Source: Escherichia phage vB_EcoM_SP13
DNA: 64,000 nt
Sequence record: OP352608
Strand: one strand, 5' to 3'
The position numbers and the translations under genes were made by a program. Shown here piece after piece: positions 15,963 to 56,759 of the stretch; position 1 is the first letter of the stretch, and every line of letters begins with the position of its first letter. The notes beneath the pieces are model-generated. The model was not told the origin of the DNA and ran no database searches. It worked only from the letters and a program-made list of their open reading frames with translations.

Positions 15963-16004
15963 ATTCATCGGCAAAGGATTGCCGCGAGTTTTATACGTAT
16001 AATG

Positions 16005-30688: not shown

Positions 30689-30745
30689 AATATTGCTTAT
30701 AGACTCCTTATAGATTATAATTTGTTGATCAGATATAAGGAGTCT

Positions 30746-31474
30746 ATGATGGCAGAAAAGTTAACCCAACTTACAAGCCCCAACCAAACTGACAAATCAA
30801 GTATGTTTGCCGCGCTGCAGGGAATGCTGGACCGTGGCAAGTATACCACTGACGGCATGATTCCTGCACAAGTAATATCTTATGACCGCAAACAGAATTT
30901 AGCAGTCATAAAGCCTGTTATTCATTTCGTAAGTCTTGATGATAAACCAGTGGAGCGTCAACCCCTGGTGTCAATTCCTGTGTTGGCAATCGGCGGCGGC
31001 GGCTTTGTAATCAACTTTCCTCTGAAAGAGGGTGATTTGGGCTGGATATTCGCTGGCGACCGCGAGTTGTCGACATTCCTTGAAGAATTGAAGCCGACCG
31101 CGCCTACCAATGGTCGCGCGAAAACTTTCGCTGATGGACTGTTCATACCGGATGTATTTCGAAAATACACCATAAGCGGAGAGGATGCAGGCTCAATGGT
31201 AATCCAGTCACTCAGCGGCGCTGTCCGCATTGCATTAAGTGATGACTCGATAAACATAACTGCATCCGCTGGAGTAAATGTGAAAACACCAATAACCACT
31301 ATCGACCAACAATTGATAGTTAATGGAAAGGCAACGTTCAATGGTGGTATAGAAGGGAAAGAAGGAACGACGGCAACGCTTCCGACTGGCACAACAATCG
31401 GCGGCATAAATGTATCCACTCACGGTCACATAGGTAACGGACCTGGAAACAGAACTGGGGATATGATAGAATGA
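30746..31474 (+). CDS. baseplate central spike/hub protein candidate (gpV / gp138-N-like)
   Basis: ORF trimmed to MMAEK after AAGGAG RBS; synteny before the baseplate J-like gene. Confidence 0.45.
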   Translation: MMAEKLTQLTSPNQTDKSSMFAALQGMLDRGKYTTDGMIPAQVISYDRKQNLAVIKPVIHFVSLDDKPVERQPLVSIPVLAIGGGGFVINFPLKEGDLGWIFAGDRELSTFLEELKPTAPTNGRAKTFADGLFIPDVFRKYTISGEDAGSMVIQSLSGAVRIALSDDSINITASAGVNVKTPITTIDQQLIVNGKATFNGGIEGKEGTTATLPTGTTIGGINVSTHGHIGNGPGNRTGDMIE

Positions 31475-40990: not shown

Positions 40991-41000
40991 GATGCACCAG

Positions 41001-41030: not shown

Positions 41031-41047
41031 GTTGATTTGATTGTCGA

Positions 41048-41908: not shown

Positions 41909-41967
41909 TTGATATTTTCCTATAGTATCAAGTTTCGTGGCAACCTGATTTCAAGATAAAGGTTAAA

Positions 41968-42525
41968 TTACTTTTTGCTTTTAGGCAAGGTTATTTTAGC
42001 TTCTTTGTATTCAAAAACGCTAATATCTTCACTAACTGGATTGCCTGCTTCCAGCTGTTCTTTTACAAATGACTTCAGTGTAGCAGAATGAACGCCTTGT
42101 TTCAATGTGGCTTCAACGCCATCTTCACGCAGCGCGGCAACAATCTCTTGCGCCTGTTCGATTTCTTCGCGACCGAACTCAGCCGTGACGCTGGACTTGA
42201 TCAAGCCGCCGTAACCGTTGTTGACAAGCCAATCGAAAACTTTTAATTCGTTTTCTTTCTTGATTGAAGCATTCACCTTGGACTCGACCTTGATTTTGGT
42301 CTTGTCCTCAAGCTTGATTTCAGACACACCAAGCTCATCCATTACGCCAGGAAGCAAAACAGTTTTGATTTCACTGATGCGCTGCTTTTGCATATCAGCT
42401 TCATCTTCAAGCTCTGTCAAAGCTTCTTGACGTTCTGCAAGTTCAGATACTAAGCGCGCAAGGCGCTCTTGAATGCTCTCAGGAGCGACCTGCGGCAAAT
42501 CATCTTCCCAATTAATATTGCTCAT
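41968..42525 (-). CDS. hypothetical acidic coiled-coil protein
   Basis: ORF in the replication module. Confidence 0.55.
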   Translation of the reverse strand: MSNINWEDDLPQVAPESIQERLARLVSELAERQEALTELEDEADMQKQRISEIKTVLLPGVMDELGVSEIKLEDKTKIKVESKVNASIKKENELKVFDWLVNNGYGGLIKSSVTAEFGREEIEQAQEIVAALREDGVEATLKQGVHSATLKSFVKEQLEAGNPVSEDISVFEYKEAKITLPKSKK

Positions 42526-42785
42526 ATTTTACCTTCTTGCATTAGCCCTTCAACACGGGTCATTTGATAACGTTCAGGTTTCCAAGCCGCCAAAGCCTTC
42601 TCAGCGCCTTTTAAGGTTTTATATGCCTTGATGCCAGGCACAATAACGGTATTCACCCCAGCGCCGTTGCCATAATCAAACTCTTTAACAACGCGGAACA
42701 TCCCGTCAATTTCTTTGACCAAAAGACGTTTGAAAGCGATTGCGCCAGTAGCTTCATTTTTGTAACGTTCAAGGATGCGTACCAT
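42522..42785 (-). CDS. hypothetical small protein
   Basis: AGAGGA RBS; conserved upstream element at 42805-42830. Confidence 0.55.
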   Translation of the reverse strand: MVRILERYKNEATGAIAFKRLLVKEIDGMFRVVKEFDYGNGAGVNTVIVPGIKAYKTLKGAEKALAAWKPERYQMTRVEGLMQEGKI

Positions 42786-42804
42786 TTTGTGTTCCTCTGT
42801 TTCG

Positions 42805-42830
42805 TTTCGATGAAGTAATTATGACTCATC
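42805..42830 (-). promoter_or_regulatory. conserved element TTTCGATGA(A/G)GTAA(A/T)TAT(A/G)ACTCATC, copy 1
   Basis: Near-identical to the element at 49636-49669; both sit just upstream of a minus-strand gene start. Confidence 0.4.
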
Positions 42831-42859
42831 TTCCATGACAAGTCAAATTATTTTTGATA

Positions 42860-44383
42860 TTAATTCATCTTTTTGCCGTCGAGGATGTGATCAGCAAGCA
42901 TAGATTTCATGCTCAGTGAACGCTGAATTTCTTCATCGATGGTATCAACACCAATAAAATCAACATACAACACACTTGATTTGGTGCCGATGCGGTGATT
43001 TCGGTCTTCGGATTGCTTGCGCAGCTCGTTGTCATAGTTGCAAGAATAATAGATTGCCAAGTCGGCGGCGGTAAGCGTGATTCCGATGCCTGCCGCTGCA
43101 GCGTGGCAAACCAAAACTTGTGTTCCACCGTTCTCGACTGTGTTTTTCTGGAAGTCATCAATCAAGAACTCTCGCTGCTCTTTCGACGTTTCACCGTTGT
43201 ATACACCAGTGACCACGCCTTCAGACTCAAGCCAATCCTTAATCTGGTTCATCTCTTCCTTAAAGATGGCCCACACAATGAATTTGCGCTCTGGGTCGTC
43301 TTCCAGCACCCCTTCCACATAGTCCTTAAAGGCCGTGAATCGTGGGTTGTCTTCCATGTAGACCATCTCATCATACACCTTAACAAAGCCTGATGTCACC
43401 TGCTTCATCTTGGTGCGAGATGCGATCATCTCAAACTTAACGTTTTCTTCTTCGCCTTTGTACTCCATCAGATAGTTGTACTCATTCTTGAGTTCATCAT
43501 ATACATCGCGCTGCTTAGGCGACAACTCGAAGTCGATAAACTTGTACACCTTCTCTGGAAGGTCCGGCAAGTATTCCGCTTTTGTCGCGCGGAAATAGTG
43601 CGGTTCCATCAGCCGGATAAGCTTGTCAAGGTTCTTGTACATCGGTCGGCCAAACTGGTCTTTGCGAGGCACTTGCGGAATGCCATAACCGTTGCCGCCG
43701 ATTTTCTTGAGAATGGCCTGCATCTCTGGGTCGTGCGCTTCAAGCAGGACTGTAAATTCAGAGTTGAATGCACGGAACGATTTGGTGCCAAGCAAGCCAG
43801 CTTCAAGGAAGTGATATTGCATGTAAATATCAGCAGGCGAGCGCGGCAGCGGCGTACCGGAAAGGATTCGACGGGCCTTTGCCAGCCGTCCCAATTCCAC
43901 AACCTTGATGGAGCGTTTGGCTGTGTTATTTTTGATACGCGTCGATTCATCAATGATCATCAAACAGCGGTATTTCTTCAAGACCGACTCAATGTGTTGA
44001 TAACCGACTGGTGTGTTGACGGTATCAATGTTGAATGAGAAGATGCGCGCAGGCACTTCGCCTTCAGGGTAGTGATCAGCAAACATCTTCTCCCAAATCG
44101 CCTTGCCCTTTTTAGTCTTCATCTTGTCATTGCCGCGCCAGTAATGCCCAATCCACTTGATGGAAAGGTGTTCTGGTGCTTCACGACGAATCCAGTTTGA
44201 GTGCACACCGTTAGGAGCGATGACAACCATGGCATCAAATGCGCCAGCGGCGAAGTGTTTTTCAAACTCTGCCAAAGCAGTCCAGGTTTTGCCAAGACCC
44301 TGCTCCATAAAATAAGCAAAGTATTTTCTGCGGCCTGCTTTATCAAGCGCCAATAATTGGTGGCGCATTCCTTGTGTTTTCAT
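42860..44383 (-). CDS. SNF2-family DNA helicase/translocase
   Basis: Motif I MEQGLGKTW and motif II IIDESTRIKN, with C-terminal helicase domain. Confidence 0.8.
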   Translation of the reverse strand: MKTQGMRHQLLALDKAGRRKYFAYFMEQGLGKTWTALAEFEKHFAAGAFDAMVVIAPNGVHSNWIRREAPEHLSIKWIGHYWRGNDKMKTKKGKAIWEKMFADHYPEGEVPARIFSFNIDTVNTPVGYQHIESVLKKYRCLMIIDESTRIKNNTAKRSIKVVELGRLAKARRILSGTPLPRSPADIYMQYHFLEAGLLGTKSFRAFNSEFTVLLEAHDPEMQAILKKIGGNGYGIPQVPRKDQFGRPMYKNLDKLIRLMEPHYFRATKAEYLPDLPEKVYKFIDFELSPKQRDVYDELKNEYNYLMEYKGEEENVKFEMIASRTKMKQVTSGFVKVYDEMVYMEDNPRFTAFKDYVEGVLEDDPERKFIVWAIFKEEMNQIKDWLESEGVVTGVYNGETSKEQREFLIDDFQKNTVENGGTQVLVCHAAAAGIGITLTAADLAIYYSCNYDNELRKQSEDRNHRIGTKSSVLYVDFIGVDTIDEEIQRSLSMKSMLADHILDGKKMN

Positions 44384-44802
44384 GACAATTCCTCTAAATA
44401 CTTGATGATGTGATGAATAGTTCCCTTCACGATTATCTCACGTTGAACGTCTGCAGTATTATAACGCTTTAATTCAATAGAAGGGTGGACTAAATAAAAC
44501 ATCTTCTCAGAATCAACCTTAAGCAGAACAAATGATGGGTATTTCCAATCATTCCACGAAGAAAGAAAGCTGCATTGGCCTTTCTCAAATGCATTTCTGA
44601 AAGGTGCAGTGGTGGCCCTTGCAGGCCACGATTCAAAGAACTTCATTTCAAGCCAAAAGCCGCGCCCTTTCCGGTTGGTGCCGATTACGTCCGGCACGCC
44701 ATCACCAGTCATCGACTCGATTCGTTGAAGCTTCAATACCGATTCTGAATGCTTCTTCAAAGGCACGAATATGTATTTCTGCTCACGGTTATTTGTTGCC
44801 AT
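44380..44802 (-). CDS. VRR-NUC-type PD-(D/E)xK nuclease
   Basis: GVPDVIG ... FWLEMKF fits the PD ... E-x-K signature; typical partner of SNF2 helicases in phages. Confidence 0.6.
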   Translation of the reverse strand: MATNNREQKYIFVPLKKHSESVLKLQRIESMTGDGVPDVIGTNRKGRGFWLEMKFFESWPARATTAPFRNAFEKGQCSFLSSWNDWKYPSFVLLKVDSEKMFYLVHPSIELKRYNTADVQREIIVKGTIHHIIKYLEELS

Positions 44803-47686
44803 CTGGATACACCTGTTTGATCACGTCAACGATGAACATGTCAATGCCTTCAAGCTTACGACCTTTCATCAGGAAGAATGCGCCGTTCCCGACGTTTTCA
44901 GCGATGTACTTCCCGTACTTCTGGAATTTCTCTGGACGAATCCTGAAGCGCATTGGCGAGTCGGTCGAGTCATCCTTGCACATAAGGTCGATGAACTGAG
45001 TCTCAAGCTTGTTCCCGTACTGGTCAAACTCTGCGTAGCGGCCATCAGCTTGAAGACCCTTTTTAAGCTTGCCGTGCTTTGTATAGATGCCGCGCTCAAG
45101 TCGTTTACGGATGCGTGTTGCTTCGTTCTCGTCCGCAAGCACTTTCTTTGTCAACTTGCCGATTACTATTGCGCGCTCGTCATCACCGACTTCCTTCATC
45201 TGGCGTATTGAAGCGCCGGACGTCACGCCAATCAGATAAGGGTCATTATATGCCCATCCGAACTTTGTGTGCATCTCTGTCAGGTCGCCATATTTAACTT
45301 CAGCATTGGCCAATGCATCCTTCTGCTTTTGCGTTAAGGTTCCGGCTTCACGCGCTTCGATATATTTCATCGCCTTCACCATGCCGTACCCTTTCGCGTT
45401 CATGATGCCGCCGATTAGCTTTCCGTTCGCGATGGTCCAGTTCATTGAAGAGTGATCAGGGTCGATTGGCACATAATCCACGCCTTCCTTCGCAAGTTCA
45501 CGTAATATCGCAATCGTCTGGTCTTCGTCCTTAGCAGCGCGTAAGCAGGCTGCGGCAAATTCCAACGGGTAGTGTCGCTTAAGCCACAAGGTCCAGTAGG
45601 TCACGACCGCGTATGACACGGAGTGTGACTTGTTAAAGCCCCATGACCCGAACGTGGCCATCGCTTGCCAAAGCTTTCTTGCATCCGCTTCCGGTACGCC
45701 ATTATTTATTGCGCCTGCAACAAAGTCCTCTCCAAGCTTGTTAAAGTATTCTTCACCCTTACGGCCTGACATTGCCTTACGTACAGCGGATGTTTTCGCC
45801 CAGTCGAATGAACCAATCTCTTTAACCACGGCCATGATTTGCTCTTGGTAAAGAAACACGCCGTAAGTCTCTTTTAGGTACGGCTCAATCTGCGGCACGT
45901 CGTACTCAATCGGCGCACGCCCTGCCGCGCGTTCAATGTATTTCTGGGCCATACCGGATGACAACGGGCCAGGTCGACCCAAAGCCGTCAGGTTGTCGAT
46001 TTTGTTAAAGTTATCGACGTGCACAAAGTTTGTTACTGAGCGTACAGCGTCGCCTTCAAACTGGAAGATGCCTGACATCTTGTTTTCGTTAAGAATGTCA
46101 AGGACGCTTTGATCATCAAGCTTGATGCCGTAGAGCGTTTCAGCATCAATAACGCCTGTATCAGAAATAATTCCGAGAGTACGAAGGCCCAACGCATCAA
46201 GCTTCAAAAGGTTAAGGTATTCGCTGTCAGGCTTATCAATTTGTGCAATCCCTTCTGCAGTTACAGTACAGTAATCAGAGATTGGGTCATTACACACAAT
46301 GATTCCCGCTGCGTGAACACCTGTGTGGGACGGGTGAATCTCAAGGTCGCCCATGCAACGCGCGGCATCAGGATATTTGGCCACGAACTCTTGACCCGTG
46401 GTTGTTGTTGCAAAGGTATCCTCCAGGCCGTGACCATAACGGGCGTCACCGGATGAGTATTCAAGCAGTGCGTTTTTAATGTTGGCCGTTTCGTGGTATC
46501 CAATGTTGAACTTCTTACCAACCTGCGCCATTACTGAGTTGGCCTTAAGCGTGTTGATGTTGCCAAGCTTTGCAACGTTCATTTCGCCGTATTTCTCTTT
46601 AAGGTAATCAAACACCATGTAGCGTTTGGTATCTTCAAAGTCGATGTCGATGTCAGGAAGGTCGGCGCGGCTTACGTCGATGAATCGGGCAAACAGCAGC
46701 TTATACGGGATTGGGTCCACTTCCGTGATGCCAAGGCAATAGCAAACAAGTGAACCAGCCGATGAGCCGCGAGCAGGACCGACGAGCATTTTTGTTTTTG
46801 CGAATCGTACAAGGTCCGCTACTACCAGAAAGTATGAGTCGAAATCTTTCAGCTGAATCTGGTGAATTTCTTCGTTGAAGCGGTCCTCATATTCCTGAGT
46901 CCATTCTTTGATGTGACCTGCTTTGAGACGGTACTCCATCCCCTCACGCGCAAGCTTTACCATATCACCAGCAAGGTGAATAATCGGTGCCTTGCGTAAT
47001 TTCAGGTCAAGTCCGACTATGCCGTTTGCTATGTCAACAGCATTGGCCGTTGCCTGATTCAGCTCATCTTCCGTCAAGATGCCTTTAAGCTGTTTGCGCA
47101 AGTCTTCCGCGTCAACGATGCAGTGCGGCTTGACCGTGTCGCGCACTTCCCAAGCATAAGCAAAGTCAACGTGCTCAGGTGAAGGCATGTGGTTGTATCC
47201 GGTTAAAACCAGCGGCCTTCCGTTGCTGCGGTGAGCCAACACCTGGCGCTTAGCCAAAAGGAACGATGATGGGTTGACGTCTATATAATCGTAGTCCTCT
47301 GGCCGCAGCAACTCCACGGCACCGCCACAGAATTTAACGACGCCATCGAGCGCACCGAACTCTGCACGGGTAAGCCCGCCGCGCTGCGTTGAAAGTGTTG
47401 TAGCGTTGTAAAAAGATTTTAAGTCAAGGGCCAATATCCAAGCCTTCGGTTTGAATCCCTTTTTCGGGTCCGCATCAGGGTCGATGATTGGAATCTCCAT
47501 CCCAAACATAGGCTTAATATCATTTTTCTGGCATTCCTTTTCCCAGCGAACGTGACCCCATGTATTGTTATCAACTAATGCCGCGACTTCGCAGCCCAAC
47601 TCTTTGAGCCGTGCTATAATTTCAGGATGCCGTCCATAAACTTCTTTGAACGTGTAACCGCTGCGAACTCTCAATTGTGGAAACAT
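44789..47686 (-). CDS. DNA polymerase III alpha-like (DnaE/C-family) replicative polymerase
   Basis: 965 aa; catalytic ADLPDIDIDFE segment matching the DnaE PDxDxDF active site; N-terminal PHP-like domain with degenerate histidines (QLRVRSGYTF). Confidence 0.85.
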   Translation of the reverse strand: MFPQLRVRSGYTFKEVYGRHPEIIARLKELGCEVAALVDNNTWGHVRWEKECQKNDIKPMFGMEIPIIDPDADPKKGFKPKAWILALDLKSFYNATTLSTQRGGLTRAEFGALDGVVKFCGGAVELLRPEDYDYIDVNPSSFLLAKRQVLAHRSNGRPLVLTGYNHMPSPEHVDFAYAWEVRDTVKPHCIVDAEDLRKQLKGILTEDELNQATANAVDIANGIVGLDLKLRKAPIIHLAGDMVKLAREGMEYRLKAGHIKEWTQEYEDRFNEEIHQIQLKDFDSYFLVVADLVRFAKTKMLVGPARGSSAGSLVCYCLGITEVDPIPYKLLFARFIDVSRADLPDIDIDFEDTKRYMVFDYLKEKYGEMNVAKLGNINTLKANSVMAQVGKKFNIGYHETANIKNALLEYSSGDARYGHGLEDTFATTTTGQEFVAKYPDAARCMGDLEIHPSHTGVHAAGIIVCNDPISDYCTVTAEGIAQIDKPDSEYLNLLKLDALGLRTLGIISDTGVIDAETLYGIKLDDQSVLDILNENKMSGIFQFEGDAVRSVTNFVHVDNFNKIDNLTALGRPGPLSSGMAQKYIERAAGRAPIEYDVPQIEPYLKETYGVFLYQEQIMAVVKEIGSFDWAKTSAVRKAMSGRKGEEYFNKLGEDFVAGAINNGVPEADARKLWQAMATFGSWGFNKSHSVSYAVVTYWTLWLKRHYPLEFAAACLRAAKDEDQTIAILRELAKEGVDYVPIDPDHSSMNWTIANGKLIGGIMNAKGYGMVKAMKYIEAREAGTLTQKQKDALANAEVKYGDLTEMHTKFGWAYNDPYLIGVTSGASIRQMKEVGDDERAIVIGKLTKKVLADENEATRIRKRLERGIYTKHGKLKKGLQADGRYAEFDQYGNKLETQFIDLMCKDDSTDSPMRFRIRPEKFQKYGKYIAENVGNGAFFLMKGRKLEGIDMFIVDVIKQVYPDGNK

Positions 47687-48228
47687 TATTTACTCCAGAT
47701 GTCATATACGCCAATTTGTTGGCAGACTTTGTGCAGTAATATTACGTCGTCTAATGCACGGTGCTTCTGTTCATATTTTCCGAAATATAATTCATACAAC
47801 TCTTGAAGCTTAACTCTTCGGCCAAAAATAGGCAAGGTTTGCTCAACTGTACATATGTTTATTTCTGGAAAATTAACATCATCAAGCGTAAGTCCTTCGC
47901 GCTGTAGTGCATAATCAAGAATGTTTTTATCGAACGCATGGTTGTGCGCGATAGTTGCATCAGTCTTCTTGAAGATTTCTTTTAGCTGCGGGACGAAATT
48001 GATGAACGGTGGATTGCACTCAAGGTCTTCATTTGTTAATCCGGTAATCTTTGTGATGATTTCTTCGATCACAATTTCAGGATTAATTATGAATTCAAAA
48101 GTTTCAAGAATCTCTTTGCCGTCTGTCAACAGACCTGCAAATTCAATAGGGCGCGGCTGCATCCCAAGCGGCGCTTTCGGGTGCACTGTCAATCCGGTTG
48201 TTTCGAAGTCATAAGGGAGAAATAACAC
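47686..48228 (-). CDS. DnaQ-like 3'-5' proofreading exonuclease (DEDD family)
   Basis: Exo I YDFETTG, Exo II HNHAFD, Exo III HRALDD; AGGAGG RBS. Confidence 0.85.
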   Translation of the reverse strand: MLFLPYDFETTGLTVHPKAPLGMQPRPIEFAGLLTDGKEILETFEFIINPEIVIEEIITKITGLTNEDLECNPPFINFVPQLKEIFKKTDATIAHNHAFDKNILDYALQREGLTLDDVNFPEINICTVEQTLPIFGRRVKLQELYELYFGKYEQKHRALDDVILLHKVCQQIGVYDIWSK

Positions 48229-48240
48229 ATTAGCCTCCTA

Positions 48241-48268
48241 CAAAAAGGCCGCCCATTAGGACGGCCAC
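48241..48268 (-). terminator. rho-independent terminator closing the flavoenzyme operon
   Basis: GGCCGCCC-atta-GGACGGCC hairpin (one mismatch); TTTTTG on the minus strand after it. Confidence 0.65.
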
Positions 48269-48282
48269 AGATTCACGATTCG

Positions 48283-48834
48283 TTATACAGTGTACGGAGT
48301 ACCGTCTTGATTCAAGCGCACGATAAACTTCAAATCAACGCCGATGATTTCACGCGTATCAAAGATCACATAGTTGTAACGACGTTGACCAGCAATGTTC
48401 GGGTTGGTATGAGAGTCAGTTACAACTTCCTGTGCAACCTGAATACCTTCTTCTTTAAAGAACTTACGCCATTCAGCAAGTTCAGCGGCAGTCACGTGCA
48501 TGCCAAGGTGGCTGACCTGATTGTCATGCGCATCGATATATTCGATGTTTTCGTTAATCCAGTTGCAGCCCATTGTGTAGTCAAGGATTTCAAGCTCAAG
48601 AGGCTTACCAGCGCCGCCATCAGTACCGTTGCCAGCCTGATAGTTGAAGCGCAAGTCAGCTTCATTGGTGCAATCGTCGCGACGACCTTTAAAGTCATCA
48701 GCTTCAAATACGCGACCAGTAGCAACAACATGATCATGGAACCATTCTGTCAGGCCGATTTTAGCCAAGAAATCCTGTGCGCGCTGAGCATCTGGAATTG
48801 ACAGGGCGATTTGTTCAATTTTAAAATGTGGCAT
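48283..48834 (-). CDS. VOC-family (glyoxalase/dioxygenase-like) protein candidate
   Basis: Two beta-alpha-beta-type modules starting IEQIALSIPDAQRAQDFLAKIGL and VSHLGMHVTAAELAEWRKFFKEEG resemble VOC repeats; tentative. Confidence 0.35.
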   Translation of the reverse strand: MPHFKIEQIALSIPDAQRAQDFLAKIGLTEWFHDHVVATGRVFEADDFKGRRDDCTNEADLRFNYQAGNGTDGGAGKPLELEILDYTMGCNWINENIEYIDAHDNQVSHLGMHVTAAELAEWRKFFKEEGIQVAQEVVTDSHTNPNIAGQRRYNYVIFDTREIIGVDLKFIVRLNQDGTPYTV

Positions 48835-48930
48835 TTTGTTTCCTTAATTAAATATTATTGATTAATTACTGCGTTGTCTTCGTCCTGTTTCTTTTCAGGA
48901 GCGGGTGTGACAACTTCAAGTGTTCGTGAT

Positions 48931-49614
48931 TTATTTACCAAATGGAATATCAGTGCCAGACATAAAGCGCCATGCGCCCGTAATTAAGATATGGCGAATG
49001 AAGTCAGCAATTACTTGCGGCTCAGTCTCCAATCCATTCATCAGTGCCTTTTTCTGGTATTCAGCGGCGTATTCAGGAGTCCAGCCGCGAGTCGCGCAAA
49101 CGGCATCTTCAATCTGTTTAGACATGCCAGTGCCGCGCAACTTGTTAGGACTAATAGAGAATACCGTGATGCCGTACTTAGGCGTAAGTTCGTGAGCCAT
49201 CTGCTTGCTGATCATAAGCGCAGCGGCCTTGGATGCATTATAACACAAGCTGGACGTCATAGGAATATGCGCAGCATTTGAAACGATGTTGATCACAAAA
49301 CCTTTGTTTTCGATAAGACCTTTCAGCGCGGCCTGAGTCGTGTTAACGAAAGAGAATGCATTGGTGTGCATAACGCGGTTAAACTCTTCATAGTTTACAT
49401 CTTCAAACCAATTGTTAGAGTTGACACCAGCACAGTTGATCAAGCCTTCAACATCATATGGGCTTAAAATTTCTTTCATCTGTTTAGCATCGCGGACGTC
49501 ATATCCGTATGCTGAATCGATGCCAAGCACGTTATGACCGTAAGCGCCAAGGGTGTCAAAAATAGATTTACCAAGACCGGAATTGGAACCTGTTACAACA
49601 ATTACTTTTTTCAT
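48931..49614 (-). CDS. short-chain dehydrogenase/reductase (classical SDR)
   Basis: Cofactor motif VTGSNSGLGKS (TGxxxGxG), NAAH, catalytic YNASK (YxxxK). Confidence 0.8.
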   Translation of the reverse strand: MKKVIVVTGSNSGLGKSIFDTLGAYGHNVLGIDSAYGYDVRDAKQMKEILSPYDVEGLINCAGVNSNNWFEDVNYEEFNRVMHTNAFSFVNTTQAALKGLIENKGFVINIVSNAAHIPMTSSLCYNASKAAALMISKQMAHELTPKYGITVFSISPNKLRGTGMSKQIEDAVCATRGWTPEYAAEYQKKALMNGLETEPQVIADFIRHILITGAWRFMSGTDIPFGK

Positions 49615-49635
49615 TTATTTATCCTTTTTGGACTT

Positions 49636-49669
49636 CGTTTCGATGAGGTAAATATAACTCATCGAAACG
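49636..49669 (-). promoter_or_regulatory. perfect 12-bp palindrome CGTTTCGATGAG-10 nt-CTCATCGAAACG, copy 2 of the conserved element
   Basis: Read directly; lies between the HAD and SDR genes. Confidence 0.45.
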
Positions 49670-49679
49670 AACAAGTAAA

Positions 49680-50552
49680 CTATTTATTGAAATTAATATT
49701 ATGGGTGTTTACAAGACGTTCACACATGGCGCTATAAACACCATCGTCGTGTATTGAGTCTTCGTGCTTCAGGCCGCTGATTGCGAAGCGTGTAAGCTTG
49801 ACAATCTTAAGCTCGAACAGATGCCACATGTGGTAGTCTTCCGGCGTTTTCAACGTTACGCCATTAGGGAAAAGCACCTGCATAACCTGACCTACCATCA
49901 CAGCGTTATCGCCATAGACAGCGTTGCGCTCACGGAAGGTCGCTGCCATTGCATCAAGAATATCGGCGGCAGTTGCCGGAGATTGTTCAACTTCCACAGC
50001 CTTAGTCTCTTCTTGCCCTGTTGCGCTTGGATCAATTGCTAATTGTTGCACCACTTCACCTGCTTTGCAAAGATTAAATGTAAAAGCGATTTTATTTTGA
50101 GCAACGGAGTTATAATACAATGCTTCATCTTGCATCCGCGCGAGTACGTCTTGTCGGTCGTCGAATACATTGATGATTCGATAATCGCCGTGCCGCAAAG
50201 CGTGCGATAGCCATGCAGATTTCATAATAGTTGATGGACGTTTGTCGCCATAGTCTCTCATCTTGATTGTAAATTCATCAAAAGGGAAAACATTGTCCAG
50301 ACGTTCAAAAGTCACTTGTCTGTATTTTTCTGGCCTTGCAGTCCAATATTCAACCGCCTCACCGCGAAGAGATGCCGACTCTACTGCTGATGCAATGTGA
50401 GGATAGAACTGATCATAACCAATACCGCTGTGATAGTCATCATAGTCTGACAACGGACCTGCCACCTTGATGCGGTCTAAGCGCCAACGGTCATCAAACA
50501 GAGTTCCGTCAAGGTCGAATACGTTTAAGATTTGGTTATTTTTGATACTCAT
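49680..50552 (-). CDS. HAD-superfamily phosphatase
   Basis: Motif I FDLDGTLFDD (DxDGT) and a downstream VFDDRQD (DD) motif; no kinase P-loop. Confidence 0.55.
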   Translation of the reverse strand: MSIKNNQILNVFDLDGTLFDDRWRLDRIKVAGPLSDYDDYHSGIGYDQFYPHIASAVESASLRGEAVEYWTARPEKYRQVTFERLDNVFPFDEFTIKMRDYGDKRPSTIMKSAWLSHALRHGDYRIINVFDDRQDVLARMQDEALYYNSVAQNKIAFTFNLCKAGEVVQQLAIDPSATGQEETKAVEVEQSPATAADILDAMAATFRERNAVYGDNAVMVGQVMQVLFPNGVTLKTPEDYHMWHLFELKIVKLTRFAISGLKHEDSIHDDGVYSAMCERLVNTHNINFNK

Positions 50553-51352
50553 CCTTTTGATACTCCATCTTTGGCAACCGGATTATTGGTGATTGGCATC
50601 GCATCCCAAAACTGGATGCGCAACTCTTCTTGCTGTGCAGTGGTATCCATCCAATCACGATACCAAGGGCAATGGGCCTTGCCATGGCGAGGGAATGCGC
50701 ACTTGCCCATACCGATGCATTGCGGCTGTAGTAAAGGATTAGCCCACGGGTGCACCTTGAGGACTTCCGCTACCATCGCACGGAAAACTTCCTGATACTC
50801 GCCTTGAGTACGCGTGCACAAGCGGTTAGAGGCCATTTGTTGTAGAGTGCGCAAGTTGAACTTTGCCATGATATGCGTTTGCATATTAGAAGGCAACACG
50901 GCACGTGCATCTTGAATCTCTGCGCCAGCCGCGCGAAGTTCTTGGTATAGGGCGTCAATGGTTGCCATTGCATCATCCCATTTCTCTGCCAGTTCAGCAG
51001 CCTTCTCGTCATGACGAGTCCATCCCTTTGGATCATCCTCTGGGTAAGTGAATTTGGCAGGACGAATCGCATCAAACGCTGACGACTCCTGAGCGCGGCT
51101 TGTTCGTTCTTGATATGCACCTGTTCGTGTGCGCACCATCTGATGAGTCATATTCTTTGATACATCAGTGATGTCAAAGATATAGTCAACAAAGTCGAAA
51201 GGTGACTTTATGGTGTCAAGCATGTAGCGCCAGTGCTCTTGCTTCTCTGATTCTGTCATCTCAGAGACTGGCTTACCAGCCATGCGCGTATTCTTTGTTT
51301 CCAGCAGAAGGTCAAGTGCATCTTGGGTGTATCGAATTAATTCAACTTTCAT
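50549..51352 (-). CDS. ThyX-family flavin-dependent thymidylate-synthase-like protein with divergent signature motif
   Basis: SPFDFVDYIF ... RTRTGAYQERTSR aligns by eye to the ThyX HETPFEH ... RHR-x7-S region but with His->Thr and Ser->Thr; downstream QDARAVLPSN ... NLRTL retains ThyX-like segments; Cys/His-rich C-terminal extension. Confidence 0.7.
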   Translation of the reverse strand: MKVELIRYTQDALDLLLETKNTRMAGKPVSEMTESEKQEHWRYMLDTIKSPFDFVDYIFDITDVSKNMTHQMVRTRTGAYQERTSRAQESSAFDAIRPAKFTYPEDDPKGWTRHDEKAAELAEKWDDAMATIDALYQELRAAGAEIQDARAVLPSNMQTHIMAKFNLRTLQQMASNRLCTRTQGEYQEVFRAMVAEVLKVHPWANPLLQPQCIGMGKCAFPRHGKAHCPWYRDWMDTTAQQEELRIQFWDAMPITNNPVAKDGVSKG

Positions 51353-51365
51353 TTTAATTATCCTA

Positions 51366-51812
51366 TTAACGGTAGTTAACTAGTTGCTGATCACCAGAGA
51401 AGGTGCAATGATAAACGAATTGTGCGTTATAAAGCAACTGAAAACTTTTCTTTGGTTCATTATTAGAACTCATTGATGTAAAGATTTCTGCACCAGAACG
51501 GTTTTCACCAATCAGGTTGATAAAGCCGCCAGTTGAACGAGGCTGAACGAAAGTGAAACGTTGCATCCACGGAGTGCGGTTGGCACCTTTCCCTGTGAAT
51601 CCTTGAATCTGAATATTCAGGCCTTCTTGCTCGTTCACACCGATGTAAGTGGTAATTGTTGCGCCAGTCGTTGCTGCAGTCTTGCCGTCCATCGCTTCGC
51701 AATCGTAAACAGCGATTGAATCGGAAGTACGGACAGCGGCTTCAGTCGCTTCCATATACATGGTTCCGAGAATAGCAGTTGCGGCAAGCGCGATTCCAGT
51801 GATTCGTTTCAT
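51366..51812 (-). CDS. exported protein of unknown function (signal peptide)
   Basis: MKRITGIALAATAILGTMYMEATEA signal-peptide-like N-terminus. Confidence 0.55.
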   Translation of the reverse strand: MKRITGIALAATAILGTMYMEATEAAVRTSDSIAVYDCEAMDGKTAATTGATITTYIGVNEQEGLNIQIQGFTGKGANRTPWMQRFTFVQPRSTGGFINLIGENRSGAEIFTSMSSNNEPKKSFQLLYNAQFVYHCTFSGDQQLVNYR

Positions 51813-51832
51813 TTTCGTTTCCTCTATGAGTT

Positions 51833-51869
51833 CTGCTTCAATGATTAAAGTATACGCCCATTGAAGCAG
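51833..51869 (-). promoter_or_regulatory. intercistronic stem-loop (10-bp perfect stem, 17-nt loop)
   Basis: CTGCTTCAAT ... ATTGAAGCAG; no T-tract, so more likely a processing or stability element than a terminator. Confidence 0.3.
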
Positions 51870-51877
51870 AAAGCAAA

Positions 51878-52873
51878 TTATTTATTAGCAATATAAGCAA
51901 ATTTTTGATAGTTATTTGCTTTGATGAGTTTTTCAACTTCAACAAGGTCATGAGCAACGTCATCAAGCAAAATGTTTCGCCAAGTAGCAAAGCGACCGAC
52001 ACTAAATACGTTCAAATCCATGGTCAGCTGTAGGAGTAGAGCGTGTCGCAAGTCTTTCGGAATGTCGACAATCTTGCCATACTTCTGGTCGACCTTTTCA
52101 ACTTCTTCGAGATCGATGTCACTCCATGATAGGCCAAAGGCTGTCAATACTTCGTCAACTTCTGCACGCAACTTAATGTCACGGTAACGAGTAATGCCGC
52201 CAGCGGCTTCAACTGCGGCTTCACTTACGCTAACCAAAGGAATTGTTTCAATGATCAGTGTGTCACCAGTGATTGATGCGCGGTAAGTTCTGACGGAGTA
52301 GTCAGGAAAGTAAATGGTTTGATACAGTGCACACTTGCGCTTAATCTTAAAGCGGTAAACACGAATGTTTGCCTTATCGAATGAGAAATCAATCTTTTGA
52401 TCAATCCCAGCAAGCTTCATCATGACTGGCAGCGGCGACGTGTTGATGATTGGCGTCTCGCTATAGCCGCAAAGAGTATCAACAGGAGTATTAAAGAATA
52501 TGCGGTCACCCAGTTTGTCGACAAGCTGATCATAAAAGTCATCAGGCGCAATATAACGCGTTGCAGTTTTAAGCTTCATGATTGAGCGGCTACCGAATTG
52601 ATTAGTGACCTTCATGGAATACATATTGGCAAGGTTGATTGGGCAATGGTCGTGGTAGTAGTTGCCGCGAAAATACACAGCCTTGTCAACTGTCACGGCC
52701 TTAAAAGGGATTCCGGTAATACGGCTTACTTCTTCGCCGCGAAATCGTAGCAAAGCCTTGTGCTGTGGCGCTCGTTCCCCTGCTTCGTACACAATGGAGT
52801 TCGGGAAGTGACACGCGGTAATAAGTCCTGCCAAACCGCCGCCGATAATCATTACAGGTTGTTTCATGTTCAT
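51878..52873 (-). CDS. FAD/NAD(P)-binding oxidoreductase (UDP-galactopyranose-mutase-like flavoenzyme candidate)
   Basis: N-terminal dinucleotide-binding VMIIGGGLAGL; C-terminal FSVGRFATWRNILLDDVAHD resembles the G-R-x-A-x-Y ... D segment of the UGM/amine-oxidase superfamily; subfamily tentative. Confidence 0.55.
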   Translation of the reverse strand: MNMKQPVMIIGGGLAGLITACHFPNSIVYEAGERAPQHKALLRFRGEEVSRITGIPFKAVTVDKAVYFRGNYYHDHCPINLANMYSMKVTNQFGSRSIMKLKTATRYIAPDDFYDQLVDKLGDRIFFNTPVDTLCGYSETPIINTSPLPVMMKLAGIDQKIDFSFDKANIRVYRFKIKRKCALYQTIYFPDYSVRTYRASITGDTLIIETIPLVSVSEAAVEAAGGITRYRDIKLRAEVDEVLTAFGLSWSDIDLEEVEKVDQKYGKIVDIPKDLRHALLLQLTMDLNVFSVGRFATWRNILLDDVAHDLVEVEKLIKANNYQKFAYIANK

Positions 52874-52897
52874 TTGTCCTTTGTGGGTGATATGAGA

Positions 52898-52926
52898 AGT
52901 ATAATAGCTAAATTATTTTACAGCAA
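52898..52926 (-). promoter_or_regulatory. sigma70-like promoter for the flavoenzyme operon
   Basis: On the minus strand: -35 TTGCTG, 17-nt spacer, -10 TATACT, about 25 nt before the ATG at 52873. Confidence 0.5.
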
Positions 52927-52950
52927 CAAGTCATTTCTATTTAGTACAGA

Positions 52951-52978
52951 CGAAAAAGACCCACAACAAGTGTGGGTC
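52951..52978 (-). terminator. rho-independent terminator after the Lys/Ala/Glu-rich gene
   Basis: GACCCACA-acaag-TGTGGGTC perfect hairpin followed on the minus strand by TTTTTCG. Confidence 0.75.
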
Positions 52979-53006
52979 AATTACCGCTATATAACCGTCC
53001 TACAGG

Positions 53007-53852
53007 TTATTCCGCTTGATCACCGTCTTCGGCATTGTCGTTGGATTCAACATCGACAAACTCGATGTGGCCCATCTCTTCCAGCTTGCTCAGGTAGGAG
53101 CGAACGGAAGCGCCAAACAGTTGATCTTTAACTTTTTCGCCCAGCTCATCGATAGACTGCGCCACGCCAACTTCGCCTTCTTTGATCGCCGCCAGAACGC
53201 GTCCACGGGTGGAATGCTCTTGCGGCTGGCTCAGGCCATTGCCGGTGTAGATGAAGTGAGTGGCTTTTGCACGACGCTGACCGTTTGCCTTTTTAGCAGC
53301 CTTGCGCTCTGCGATGGCTTTGCGACGTTCTTCAGCTTCTTTCTTACGCTGTTCTTTCTGCTGTTCTGCAGCTTCTTTAGCCGCAATCTTAGCAGCTTCA
53401 CGCTCTGCCTTGCGTTTCGCTTTAGCTTCTTCTTTGGCCTTCTCTTTTTCGGCCTTCGCTGCAGCACGGGCTTGATCACGCTCTGCTTTCTTGGCCGCAG
53501 CCTGCTCAGCTTTCAGGCGCTTGGCTTCTTCTTTAGCCTTTGCCTTTTCGATTTCTTTTGCTGCTTTAGCGGCTTCACGCTCTGCTTTCTTAGCAGCAGC
53601 CTTTTCTGCACGCTCTTTAGCTTTCTTAGCTGCTTCTTCAGCACGCTTCTGCGCCTTCTCATCAGCAGCCTGCTTGCGTTTCAGCGCAGCTTCTTCACGC
53701 TTGGCTTGTTTTTCCTGCTCACGCTTCTGGCGCTTCTCTTCGGCTTCTTTCTTTTTAGCCAGGCGTTTTTCTTCAGCCACGCGACGACGTTCTGCTGCGG
53801 CTGCTTGTTTTTCTTCTTTAGATAATACTTTGATTGCTTCGGCCATATTCAC
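53007..53852 (-). CDS. Lys/Ala/Glu-rich low-complexity protein with a globular C-terminal domain
   Basis: About 200 aa of KAEEAAKKAKERAEK-type repeats (TolA-, histone-H1- or IF2-like composition) followed by an 80-aa non-repetitive tail. Confidence 0.6.
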   Translation of the reverse strand: MNMAEAIKVLSKEEKQAAAAERRRVAEEKRLAKKKEAEEKRQKREQEKQAKREEAALKRKQAADEKAQKRAEEAAKKAKERAEKAAAKKAEREAAKAAKEIEKAKAKEEAKRLKAEQAAAKKAERDQARAAAKAEKEKAKEEAKAKRKAEREAAKIAAKEAAEQQKEQRKKEAEERRKAIAERKAAKKANGQRRAKATHFIYTGNGLSQPQEHSTRGRVLAAIKEGEVGVAQSIDELGEKVKDQLFGASVRSYLSKLEEMGHIEFVDVESNDNAEDGDQAE

Positions 53853-54005
53853 AGTCCTTAAATAAATTAGTTTATTTTATATTCCCCGTTTGGGATAACT
53901 TAATTATGCCTTCAGTTGCCGCCAGTAGCAACTAAAAACTATGGCGGCAATGCCACTTTAATTAAACTGATTTTCAGTTTTATTTTTCGTAAATTTACGT
54001 CAACA

Positions 54006-55190
54006 TTAACGCGCTTTCAAATCACGGTACACGGTCAGATTCTTCTTAGCACGGGTGATAGCGGTGTACATCATCTTGGAGTACGGAACGCCGCGCAAGA
54101 TTTCTTCCAGCACGCACACATTATCCCACTCGCTGCCTTGCGATTTGTGCACCGTGATGACATAGCCATAGTCCATCCCGCCAACAGCGCGTTGCGCTTC
54201 TTTGCGCACTTCCTGATCAGTAGAGAAGGAAAGAGGATTGATCTTCACCTTTATATCTTTACCATCAGTTAATGAACGCAAGTTGACATACATTATTTCA
54301 TTCGACTCATCTTCATCCCTTTCAAAGTCCGGCACTGGCTCATAGCTAATAACAATCCCTTGCTCGCCATTACAGAATCCTGGACCGTGTTGGTTGAATG
54401 TGCAAATAACCTTCTCGCCGATTCCTGGCATTGGCGTTATACGTCCGCTCACTTGCCGTAATAATGAATTCCATTTATCTTTGGTGCTATTATAGGAGCA
54501 AATAATTTGATCATCTTCGCCCATGAATTTCTTCAATGCAGTAACGCGCGGCGATTCTGCCAATACTTTGACGTCATCGTATTCACGCGGGGGAAGGCGG
54601 TTGCCTTGGCGCACGAAGAAGGAGGCGCGGATTATATTGGACTCTTTCCCTTGCCGCATGATTTCGGTTAACAGCACGTCAACGGCATCTTCAGTAAAGT
54701 AGGCGGCGGCTTTTACCGGAGGGACTTGTCCAATGTCGCCTAATGCCAGGACAGGGATGCGGTGATCAAGAAGGCGCTCTGTGTCCCACTCGCCAACCAT
54801 CGACGCTTCATCGAGTACAACAAGGTGCGGCCTTTCATCCAGCTTTGACTTTCTCGAAAAGATTGGCTCATTGTCGTCATTTACGCCGCGCACGTTATAG
54901 ATGAACTGGTGAAGGGTCTTAGCGCCACGACAGCCTTTTTGCTTTAATCGGCTTGCAGCCTTTCCGGTCGGCGCAATATAGATAGCTCCATACTCACCGA
55001 CACAACGGCGCACAATCTCGCGAGCAATAGAGGTTTTACCAGTCCCTGCATAGCCAGCGATGAAAAACACGCGCTTCGTCGTTTTACCGTCCTGCAATCG
55101 CTTGTACCATGCAACGGCTTTCTCGATGGCGTCGATTTGTTGCGCGTTAAACTGAATCACTGGCTCATCATTAAATTCTGGAATGTTCAT
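54006..55190 (-). CDS. Dda/RecD-like SF1 DNA helicase
   Basis: Walker A AGYAGTGKTS, Walker B VVLDEASMV, and the C-terminal VITVHKSQGSEWDNV motif typical of RecD/Dda/Pif1 helicases. Confidence 0.8.
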   Translation of the reverse strand: MNIPEFNDEPVIQFNAQQIDAIEKAVAWYKRLQDGKTTKRVFFIAGYAGTGKTSIAREIVRRCVGEYGAIYIAPTGKAASRLKQKGCRGAKTLHQFIYNVRGVNDDNEPIFSRKSKLDERPHLVVLDEASMVGEWDTERLLDHRIPVLALGDIGQVPPVKAAAYFTEDAVDVLLTEIMRQGKESNIIRASFFVRQGNRLPPREYDDVKVLAESPRVTALKKFMGEDDQIICSYNSTKDKWNSLLRQVSGRITPMPGIGEKVICTFNQHGPGFCNGEQGIVISYEPVPDFERDEDESNEIMYVNLRSLTDGKDIKVKINPLSFSTDQEVRKEAQRAVGGMDYGYVITVHKSQGSEWDNVCVLEEILRGVPYSKMMYTAITRAKKNLTVYRDLKAR

Positions 55191-55516
55191 TATAACTCCA
55201 CTACGCTTTCAAGGTCCAGATATACTGGAATAAAATGGCAATCTTCTTTTCGTTCAAACATCTCACCATCAACATGGCTGAAGAAAACAGTTGTGTTTGG
55301 TATCTTCCATCCTTTCTCGTCGCGCACTAAGTACGCCATGGATTCAACAGGGATGTACAGCGATACCGGATTTGCGGCAAAAATAAATTTGATTCTGTCT
55401 GGTTGGCCCAGAAATCGCATGATTGTTAGGCTTGAATTCAATCTTGTATTAAGGAAGGACTCAACGATTCCGACGTGTGTTGCACGTTCGCGTTGCTTCG
55501 TCTCTTTTTCGTTCAT
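55190..55516 (-). CDS. hypothetical protein (108 aa), first gene of the minus-strand unit
   Basis: ORF; 1-nt overlap with the helicase gene. Confidence 0.55.
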   Translation of the reverse strand: MNEKETKQRERATHVGIVESFLNTRLNSSLTIMRFLGQPDRIKFIFAANPVSLYIPVESMAYLVRDEKGWKIPNTTVFFSHVDGEMFERKEDCHFIPVYLDLESVVEL

Positions 55517-55554
55517 TTCAGGCGACCTTTGTTAGTGCGGAAATATTTTCTGAT

Positions 55555-55583
55555 AGTATAATTGCAGATATAGTATAAAGCAA
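55555..55583 (-). promoter_or_regulatory. sigma70-like promoter for the minus-strand replication unit
   Basis: On the minus strand: -35 TTGCTT, 17 nt, -10 TATACT; divergent from the primase promoter. Confidence 0.45.
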
Positions 55584-55619
55584 AGTAAATCGAAATTGTG
55601 AACTAAATGGTAAATATTG

Positions 55620-55647
55620 TTGACTTTGTATCACTCAATATTATACT
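55620..55647 (+). promoter_or_regulatory. sigma70-like promoter for the primase unit
   Basis: -35 TTGACT, 16-nt spacer, -10 TATACT, then AAAGGAAAGAAAG RBS and ATG 55677. Confidence 0.55.
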
Positions 55648-55676
55648 GCAGGTATTGATCACCAAAGGAAAGAAAG

Positions 55677-56759
55677 ATGGCTAGTTTAAGAGAAGAAGCA
55701 AAAATAATTGAAGAGTTTTTAACAGAACTCCAGAGAGGCATCCCAGAAGATGAGCGCGTCATGACGGTGTTTGCTCCTGAAGCAACGGTGCAGACTGACG
55801 AGCGCGGAAAGAAGATTAACAGCAGCTTCTGGCCTAAGCCTTGGAAGTTGGGCAAGCCGCTCATGCAGCACCAAAACGGCTATGCTTGCATCAGTTCAAT
55901 GCGTAAGTCTCCCAACCCAAAGACGGGTGAGATGCGATACTGGCGTACAGAGTCGGCCTTTGGTCACGGTATGGCGATGATGGTCGACGACATCGGTCAC
56001 GGTAAAGGGTCCAAAGGCGATTTAGATTTGGAATTCTTTTTTGAGCGACTGAAGCCGACTGTCATCGTCGAGACTTCACCGAACAACCACCAGCTTTGGT
56101 ACTTCTTTAAAGAACCGATTGACCATCTTATTCAGTTCAAAGCGTTCCTTGGGTCTTTCGTTAACATGGTACTCAAGAAGGGCGGCGACAACACGATTAA
56201 AGACGTAACGCGCGTGGGCCGTGTTCCTGGGTGCATCAATAACAAGCGTGTGACTCACGACGGCCCCTATAAATATGTCGATGAGAACGGCGACCCGTTC
56301 CGCTGCCGACTTGTCCATGCAGACTACTCCTTGCGCTACACCATCGAAGACATTTGTCACGCATTTGGCTTTCACGTCGTCATGCCGCAAAAGCGTGAGA
56401 TTCAAATTGACGTCGATGAATACAAGTATGATGCCGTTTGGTATAAAATAGCCCAGCAGATTCTGGCGCGCAACAAGATGGGTGAAGGGTCTGATGGCGA
56501 CGTCATCGAGAATATGTCAGGCAAGTGCCGCATAATCTGTCCTTGGGGTGAAGAGCACACCAACGGCGACCCGTATGGCGCGTACTTTCGCGGCCCTATC
56601 CCTGGTGCAGAACATGAATTTGTGTTCGGTTGCGCCCACGACTGTCACCGGAAAGGGGAAGGCAAGAAAGGTTGGACTGCTTTTGTTGAAGCAATCGTCA
56701 TGCCTTATATTGAGAATCAACTTGACATGATAAATCGTCGTGCAGGTGGCATAAAATAG
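55677..56759 (+). CDS. DNA primase, archaeo-eukaryotic (AEP / prim-pol) type, with C-terminal zinc-binding region
   Basis: AMMVDDIGHG, ETSPNNHQLWYFF (S-x-x-H-x-W motif) and VGRVPGCINNK segments resemble AEP motifs I-III; C-terminal CPWGEEH ... CAHDCH. Confidence 0.6.
   Translation: MASLREEAKIIEEFLTELQRGIPEDERVMTVFAPEATVQTDERGKKINSSFWPKPWKLGKPLMQHQNGYACISSMRKSPNPKTGEMRYWRTESAFGHGMAMMVDDIGHGKGSKGDLDLEFFFERLKPTVIVETSPNNHQLWYFFKEPIDHLIQFKAFLGSFVNMVLKKGGDNTIKDVTRVGRVPGCINNKRVTHDGPYKYVDENGDPFRCRLVHADYSLRYTIEDICHAFGFHVVMPQKREIQIDVDEYKYDAVWYKIAQQILARNKMGEGSDGDVIENMSGKCRIICPWGEEHTNGDPYGAYFRGPIPGAEHEFVFGCAHDCHRKGEGKKGWTAFVEAIVMPYIENQLDMINRRAGGIK

Follow-up and report, generated by a model that had tools for sequence, protein, structure and literature searches.

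What is a long, nearly perfect palindrome doing between two genes that are read in the same direction? The original prediction for this locus had proposed a shared operator, an internal promoter or an RNA processing site, and had taken the palindrome itself as the conserved element. We examined these readings in the window, that is, the whole stretch of 64,000 nucleotides analysed here, using as reference relative Escherichia phage F13 (OP745617.1), a PB1-related myovirus of ~68 kb in the genus Wifcevirus, to which the window is 100% identical over the 1.9 kb tested. Phages of this genus have been used against E. coli O157 and their replication was reported to be unusually fast; our literature search on Wifcevirus promoters and transcription found nothing relevant.

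The palindrome CGTTTCGATGAGGTAAATATAACTCATCGAAACG indeed lies at positions 49636-49669 with perfect 12-bp arms, and in F13 the perfect complementarity reaches 14 bp (49634-49647 / 49658-49671); with one mismatch allowed, the stem measures 17 nt and contains 16 base pairs. Its predicted placement was also correct, since it is found between the stop codon of a HAD/PNK-like gene (49680-50552, minus strand, PF25109) and the ATG (49614) of an SDR gene (PF00106). Both genes are on the minus strand, and the element, which we call site 1, occupies the whole 65-nt gap from the PNK/HAD stop to the SDR ATG. The site 1 hairpin folds with -25.7 kcal/mol (z = -6.3). Perfect inverted repeats with arms of at least 12 bp and loops of 3-25 nt gave 10 seed pairs in the window, corresponding to 4 hairpins, against a mean of 0.1 in dinucleotide shuffles. 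An Rfam search of positions 40000-56000 gave no match at E <= 1.

Read on the coding (minus) strand, the gap at site 1 is TAG-TTTACT-TGTTCGTTTCGATGAGT-TATATT-TACCTCATCGAAACGAA-GTCCAAAAAGGATAAATAA-ATG, and the related sequence upstream of the 87-aa gene, site 2, is TTGACT-TGTCATGGAAGATGAGT-CATAAT-TACTTCATCGAAACGAA-ACAGAGGAACACAAA-ATG on its own coding strand. Taking hexamers near TTGACA and TATAAT at a spacing of 17 +/- 1 nt as the mark of a sigma-70 promoter, both sites were independently scored as sigma-70-type promoters with 17-nt spacing, the consensus being matched at 9 of 12 hexamer positions at site 1 (TTTACT-17-TATATT) and at 10 of 12 at site 2 (TTGACT-17-CATAAT). Against an internal promoter at site 1 stands its -35 hexamer TTTACT, which agrees with TTGACA at only four of six positions. 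In the direction of transcription, the features of the two sites are:

49680..49700, minus strand: AT-rich, UP-element-like tract upstream of the site 1 -35, overlapping the last codons and the stop of the PNK/HAD gene; by sequence comparison, site 2 has a similar counterpart
49674..49679, minus strand: site 1 -35 hexamer TTTACT, directly after the TAG stop (49680-49682); orthologous to TTGACT in MyoSmar and TTGACG in Kyle
49658..49671, minus strand: site 1 left arm TTCGTTTCGATGAG, making up most of the 17-nt promoter spacer; Wifcevirus only
49651..49656, minus strand: site 1 -10 hexamer TATATT, in the hairpin loop
49634..49647, minus strand: site 1 right arm CTCATCGAAACGAA, the conserved start-site box, beginning 3 nt past the -10
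49644, minus strand: predicted transcription start of site 1 (an A), by analogy with T7 A1
49612..49626, minus strand: Shine-Dalgarno (SD) sequence AAGGA (49622-49626) and ATG (49612-49614) of the SDR gene, outside the hairpin pairing
42841..42846, minus strand: site 2 -35 hexamer TTGACT
42818..42830, minus strand: site 2 GATGAGT and -10 hexamer CATAAT (42818-42823), common to site 1
42801..42813, minus strand: site 2 start-site box TCATCGAAACGAA, exact, with its predicted start at A 42811; upstream of the 87-aa ORFan

The second site was originally described as a slightly degenerate copy of the palindrome at 42805-42830. A related copy does exist there, at ~42801-42830, but it is not a degenerate palindrome: site 2 keeps one full arm (TCATCGAAACGAA), the loop, and GATGAG alone of the other arm, and since the outer left arm is missing there is no palindrome at this position. 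The inner repeat is 5/6 only, and the fold of site 2 is without significance (z = -1.8). The similarity between the two sites spans ~65 bp, longer than had been stated, and runs in the order AT-rich tract, TTkACTTGT, a divergent patch of 7-8 nt, and GATGAGTyATAwTTACyTCATCGAAACGAA; judging from this alignment, site 2 (42801-42846) is clearly a paralogous promoter cassette ~65 bp long. The 22-nt pattern GATGAGTYATAWTTACYTCATC had two matches against 0 expected, and a genome-wide search for further copies, which the original prediction had called for, returned the two sites and no third; it allowed up to 3 mismatches and took in the 4.5 kb beyond the window. Between the two cassette copies lie 6.8 kb holding essential replication genes, and by their sequence both copies look like products of exchange. 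The proposed distance of 20-25 nt to a start codon was roughly right, the actual distances to the ATG being 21 nt at site 1 and 19 nt at site 2.

The terminator scan placed the terminators of the region at ~52.96, ~48.25 and ~41.02 kb, and sites 1 and 2, as well as a further site at 51.8 kb described below, are therefore internal to operons. Many TTTGCT/TTTACT/TTGACT-17-TATAAT-like promoters are found in other intergenic regions of the window, so that the phage appears to depend on host RNA polymerase acting at near-consensus promoters.

The PNK-SDR gene pair is kept in the Serratia/Erwinia Myosmarvirus and in the Pantoea Kylevirus. The orthologous spacer reads TTGACT-GCAGGCCAAGGATGGCC-GATAAT in MyoSmar, TropicalSun and KKP3709 and TTGACG-CCTCTTCCAAAGGGGCG-TATTCT in Kyle, and an uncultivated relative (IMG/VR locus L151, SDR 47% identical) has TTGACT-17-TATAAT at the same position. 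All five retain the hexamers and the 17-nt spacing, with spacer sequences that are unrelated; at the PNK-SDR position of the high-GC relatives the promoter is absent. The MyoSmar and Kyle spacers matching site 2 and the 51.8-kb site contain sigma-70-type promoters as well. The left arm is absent in Kyle, MyoSmar, L151 and the other box-bearing promoters. Kyle carries TATCTCATCTTAAACGAA after its -10 at the site 1 position, hence the right-arm box is older than Wifcevirus at this site. The unit that is conserved is the promoter with its start-site box rather than the palindrome, which was added at one of the two sites, and by its distribution the hairpin is best described as a Wifcevirus-specific addition. 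Around its -10, L151 carries a 7-bp inverted repeat of its own (AGTGCGC / GCGCACT).

Variation within the genus was compared in nine Wifcevirus genomes that are 90-97% identical to F13 across the site 1 region. In the flanking genes, 103/291 and 78/228 third codon positions vary (34-35%), and the gap itself varies at two of its 65 positions. None of the 24 positions of the 12-bp core arms varies, the core of the left arm being invariant in all nine genomes. The 17-nt promoter spacer, a stretch whose sequence is normally unconstrained in sigma-70 promoters, varies at one position, which belongs to the outermost pair. At site 2, which forms no hairpin, the patch equivalent to the hairpin arm is a polymorphic position (T, C or G). 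From this pattern of variation we judge the Wifcevirus-specific hairpin to be under selection. As to covariation within the hairpin, variation is confined to the outermost pair and the mismatch position, and the genomes are too similar to show compensatory changes.

The start-site box follows the consensus TAnyTCAwCGAAACGAA directly after the -10. A first IMG/VR scan with 15 specified bases gave mostly chance matches, with the full context in Wifcevirus contigs only. Scanning IMG/VR with TANNNTTANNTCANCGAAACGAA returned 111 stretches, representing 85 distinct contexts (loci L174-L272), in which the box comes directly after a -10 hexamer; 52 of the 85 also have a -35 (at least 4/6 matches) 16-18 nt upstream, where ~9 would be expected by chance, this number being our own binomial estimate for a search pattern that contained no -35 hexamer. 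In most of the 85 contexts the SD and the ATG come next. The phages behind these ~85 box promoters are Wifcevirus, Sashavirus, T1-like and other enterobacterial phages, and many contexts come from T1-like Klebsiella phages; in Klebsiella phage Solomon (L273), the early region contains the box twice, at 41966 and 39079 (minus strand). The T1-like cassettes have the form GCACTTTTTGYTAAA-(stem-loop)-TATAGT/TATTAT-box, in which 22 nt, instead of 17 nt, separate a -35-like TTGYTA from the -10 and the stem-loop sits between them. The box is widespread across enterobacterial phages and apparently undescribed, a literature search for the motif string having matched no paper. The internal promoter named among the original options is well supported by the sigma-70 hexamers, by promoters at the same position in other genera and by the ~85 contexts in which the box accompanies a promoter.

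T7 A1, a strong early coliphage promoter whose initial transcribed region is conserved, reads TTGACT-17-GATACT-TACAGCC-A(+1)TCGAGAGGG with an annotated start, and compares with the -10-TACCTC-ATCGAAACGAA of site 1 in having an equal discriminator length and an ATCGA start. It differs in that its box runs on as GAGGGAC, whereas the Wifcevirus box runs on as AAACGAA, and in that there is no inverted repeat around its -10. From this layout, starts are predicted at the A of ATCGAAACG, i.e. at 49644 for site 1 and 42811 for site 2, within the right arm or box, and the predicted 5'-terminal RNA of box-bearing transcripts is AUCGAAACGAA. A small downstream hairpin, yTCAw-CGAAACGAA-wTGAr, looked covarying by eye but was not supported by a partner-shuffle control, in which the mean was 11 and the maximum 17, compared with 16 in the real data. 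In 26 box contexts (e.g. L258, L266, L203 and L205; contigs of ~47-50 kb) a conserved ACATCGACAGCTGAGCGAAGTTAGCCAGCGGCGGACAG stands in place of the SD and ATG, a candidate structured leader or small non-coding RNA.

Two further promoters of the window are wrapped in long hairpins:

51831..51877, minus strand: promoter TTTGCT-17-TATACT, with perfect 13-bp arms (51859-51871 / 51831-51843) that flank the -10
30692..30748, plus strand: promoter TTGCTT-17-TATAAT, with perfect 14-bp arms (30699-30712 / 30734-30747)

The arms at 51.8 kb (TTCTGCTTCAATG / CATTGAAGCAGAA) and at 30.7 kb (ATAGACTCCTTATA / TATAAGGAGTCTAT) are unrelated to those of site 1. The 51.8-kb hairpin lies upstream of a 148-aa gene that precedes ThyX; its left arm, in the spacer, is common to Kyle and its right arm is found in Wifcevirus only, an arrangement opposite to that of site 1. 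Counting site 1, three of the window's four long perfect inverted repeats bracket the -10 of an internal promoter with arms that are mutually unrelated, and such independent origins of a like geometry argue for selection on structure rather than on sequence. At 30.7 kb the right arm overlies the SD and the ATG of the baseplate-spike gene, and the SD-AUG segment has a mean P(unpaired) of 0.13 in read-through RNA and of 0.61 in promoter-initiated RNA. Hairpins with other arms and the same layout are present at the baseplate-spike gene of MyoSmar (L172, ~190-265) and of Pseudomonas phage F8 (L173, ~190-240), and, going by the folding models, PB1-related phages seem to have conserved at this gene a translational switch resembling that of T4 gene e.

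The explanation of site 1 that we consider probable is that the palindrome is an internal sigma-70 promoter whose spacer turned into the exact complement of the start-site box, so that a hairpin is possible only in read-through RNA. The element would be a cassette for the host sigma-70 RNA polymerase, composed of the AT-rich tract, the -35 TTTACT, the 17-nt spacer, the -10 TATATT and the box TACCTC-ATCGAAACGAA, after which an unstructured leader of ~30 nt would lead to the SD and ATG of the SDR gene; promoter activity, like the start site and the role of the hairpin, is predicted here from sequence. The cassette at site 2 would drive the horizontally acquired 87-aa ORFan. The start-site box may be seen as a module common to many enterobacterial phages, and in the Wifcevirus lineage the spacer at site 1 would have become its exact complement, giving a 12-14-bp hairpin with the -10 in the loop. 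As the left arm is situated upstream of the predicted start, transcripts from the cassette's own promoter could not form the hairpin, which would arise only in read-through RNA from the upstream ThyX/PNK genes; the alternative would be a cruciform extruded in the DNA. In read-through RNA the hairpin could act as does the stem-loop of the PeSL (promoter-early stem-loop) cassettes of T4-like myoviruses, as a barrier that attenuates or insulates upstream transcription or as a protection for the 3' end of the upstream message, and the embedded promoter would re-initiate transcription and set the expression of the downstream genes.

Such a PeSL-like role as barrier, insulator or 3' stabiliser is suggested by analogy, and some observations weigh against parts of it. 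Termination is doubtful, as the stem is followed by GUCCAAAAAGG, a U-tract is absent and the terminator scan made no call, and an intrinsic terminator at site 1 was rejected on these grounds. The accessibility of the SD and AUG is left unchanged by the hairpin (P(unpaired) 0.72 vs 0.71), and the function best documented for hairpins of this kind is therefore not applicable here. The conservation of the spacer at site 1, moreover, fits an RNA hairpin and a DNA-level element alike.

Control at the DNA level, by an operator that binds a dimeric regulator of phage or host origin or by a supercoil-dependent cruciform that switches the promoter, is unlikely in our estimation, even though the repeat straddles the -10 exactly, which is a classic position for repression, its AT-rich centre favours extrusion, the spacer is conserved beyond what promoter function needs, and GATGAG...yTCATC is present at both sites. 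Perfect 14-bp arms far exceed a protein half-site, the outer arm is missing at site 2, the two sister hairpins share the geometry and have unrelated arms, and the ~85 other box promoters are without a matching repeat; the centres of the inner half-sites would, in addition, be ~16 bp apart, on opposite faces of the helix, and a search of the adjacent proteins yielded no DNA-binding domain. The shared operator of the original prediction is improbable for these same reasons, site 2 being a half-palindrome only. We are equally doubtful of a reading that gives the box A(T/A)CGAAACGAA itself a role, as an element that some host or phage factor recognises, either at transcript 5' ends or in the open promoter, with the Wifcevirus hairpin as a switch that hides the box in read-through RNA. 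The box might in that case control promoter escape, 5'-end-dependent decay or translation and, if true, this would define a widespread, undescribed class of phage leader elements with lineage-specific gating.

The third original option, RNA processing, would have the hairpin cut by RNase III or another nuclease, thereby separating the PNK and SDR messages as in the early intercistronic sites of T7. A stable intercistronic hairpin (-25.7 kcal/mol) inside an operon, in a terminator-free stretch between 52.9 kb and 48.3 kb, is what this would call for, but typical RNase III substrates measure roughly two helical turns and the site 1 stem is shorter. An Rfam match is absent, the three hairpins have no sequence feature in common, and the proposal is indistinguishable from a passive stabiliser with nothing specific in its favour, which makes it quite unlikely. 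That the palindrome is without function, an inherited by-product of template switching or gene conversion between promoter cassettes, would account for its perfect arms, since a template switch yields these, and sites 1 and 2 are paralogous, so sequence exchange between cassettes does occur. We hold this to be very unlikely, given that the arms are invariant in nine genomes in which synonymous sites vary at ~35%, that the equivalent patch of site 2 varies freely, and that three independent long hairpins of the same geometry were built by opposite routes. A translational switch of the T4 gene e / soc / 49 type, in which the hairpin would hide the SDR ribosome-binding site in read-through RNA and restrict SDR translation to transcripts from its own promoter, fits the 30.7-kb hairpin with its counterparts in MyoSmar and F8, but is extremely improbable at site 1: the site 1 and 51.8-kb hairpins end 18-19 nt ahead of the ATG (19 nt at site 1), and the P(unpaired) of the SD/AUG at 51.8 kb is 0.73 in both RNAs. 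Masking of the SD at site 1 was accordingly rejected on the near-equal accessibilities given above.

The internal promoter with a hairpin in its read-through RNA is a regulatory cassette of a broadly known type and not a new kind of system. PeSLs combine a sigma-70 promoter with a stem-loop that either overlaps the -10 or sits in the interval from -35 to -10; an AT-rich tract precedes the promoter and an SD/ATG follows it (PMC2839356), and one such stem-loop behaved as a terminator/attenuator in a lacZ assay (Arbiol et al. 2010, PMC2839356; Comeau et al. 2014, PMC4122927). PeSL copies are numerous and conserved, border ORFans of hyperplastic regions and mediate recombination. The site 1 cassette resembles them in being intergenic, from a stop codon to the next ATG, in its AT-rich tract, sigma-70-like promoter and SD/ATG, in 14-bp arms that flank the -10, in the presence of paralogous copies in a genome and in the association with ORFans, site 2 preceding the mobile 87-aa ORFan. 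However, Wifcevirus is PB1-like and not one of the T4-like myoviruses in which the family was defined, and has only two sequence-related copies per genome, between which lie essential replication genes instead of a hyperplastic ORFan region. The arms of site 1, moreover, are AT-moderate and derived from the spacer and the start-site box, whereas PeSL arms are GGGG/CCCC, and site 1 lacks a U-tract, its terminator activity being doubtful.

In the leaders of T4 gene e, soc, 49 and I-TevI, the 5' arm of a hairpin lies upstream of an internal late promoter (PMC3014915). Site 1 has in common with this type a promoter within the hairpin, such that only read-through RNA folds, and the 30.7-kb site of the same genome matches the logic. 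The T4 leaders use a gp55 late promoter, and their 3' arm sequesters the SD/AUG, whereas site 1 is of sigma-70 type with its SD free. A DNA inverted repeat also forms part of the early promoters for the virion RNA polymerase of phage N4. These have stems of 5-7 bp and 3-nt loops, and are used by a phage-encoded RNA polymerase on extruded single-stranded DNA; site 1 differs in having canonical -35 and -10 hexamers.

These cassettes would provide a first promoter-map logic for the replication module, with internal sigma-70 promoters in long operons, three of them wrapped in hairpins, and would extend composite promoter/stem-loop cassettes, previously known only from T4-like phages, to PB1-related and T1-like phages. 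The box that unrelated enterobacterial phages have in common could also be an aid in promoter annotation and a source of phage-derived expression parts.

The 87-aa gene downstream of site 2 (42522-42785, minus strand), which follows the helicase gene, belongs to phrog_27467 with no function assigned. It is missing from MyoSmar and Kyle, in which the helicase directly precedes the orthologue of the F13 185-aa gene (40% identity). Relatives of the protein occur in Seuratvirus-type siphoviruses (88-92% amino-acid identity), in Sashavirus/Bas82 and MM01 (67-72%) and in the T4-like Muldoon and PS2 (55-60%); the ORFan is also common to Drexlerviridae and to T4-like Serratia/Cronobacter phages, within an overall range of 55-92%. 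By this distribution it is most readily regarded as a mobile, horizontally acquired ORFan. The copy in Bas82/Sashavirus is preceded by TTGACG-17-TATCTT-TAACTCAACGAAACGAAC, with the same box at the same position, and in MM01 the box is partly present upstream of the ORFan. In the T4-like Muldoon and VP8, the same ORFan is preceded by a PeSL, TTTACA-17-TATAAT with AGGAGAT/ATCTCCT over the -10.

A box travelling with the ORFan from CAjan-type siphoviruses was considered and rejected, since nucleotide similarity stops at the limits of the ORF, as was the 87-aa protein as an autoregulator, in which a DNA-binding domain was not found. The hairpin as an insertion hotspot was also rejected, because the insertions in kaset, Bas98, ECO71P1 and Bas99 sit downstream of the SDR gene; no indels bounded by the two cassette copies were seen, those of kaset and Bas98 being downstream of the SDR gene. 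In F13 the interval after SDR (window 48835-48930) is a 96-nt gap; kaset, Bas98 and Mansfield have one or two additional small ORFs there (L002 256-471, L003 256-641 and L006 10627-10842), which makes it a small variable region.

The promoter spacers of MyoSmar and Kyle (L129 / L131) contain short GC-rich inverted repeats (GGCCAAGGATGGCC, GCTCAAGGATGAGC, GCCGTC...GACGGC and ATGGCGC...GCGCCAT), which we take from their position to be PeSL-like stem-loops between -35 and -10. Three early-type promoter and leader cassettes (AAAAAGTGCTTTACTT...TATAATG...ATCGAGAGGGGATGAGGTAGCGAATAGGTCGC...) are located at window 2255-2442 (both strands) and 2782-2888 (plus strand), and their transcribed start, ATCGAGAGGG...GCGAATAG, is common to the initial transcribed region of T7 A1 (T7 498-525). 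A 417-bp non-coding region at window 15963-16379 is filled with copies of CGTATCATCCGTA / TACGGATGATACG, in direct as well as inverted orientation, that surround an AT-rich core, and the motif pair is found again at the start of the window (64-122); this repeat region may be an origin, a packaging site or the boundary of a terminal repeat. Finally, the window spans the ends of the linear record OP745617.1, window position 1 being record position 6553 and window position 64000 being record position 2068, and between its two halves the coordinates differ by 302 nt, as might result from a short terminal duplication or from an indel with respect to the deposited record.
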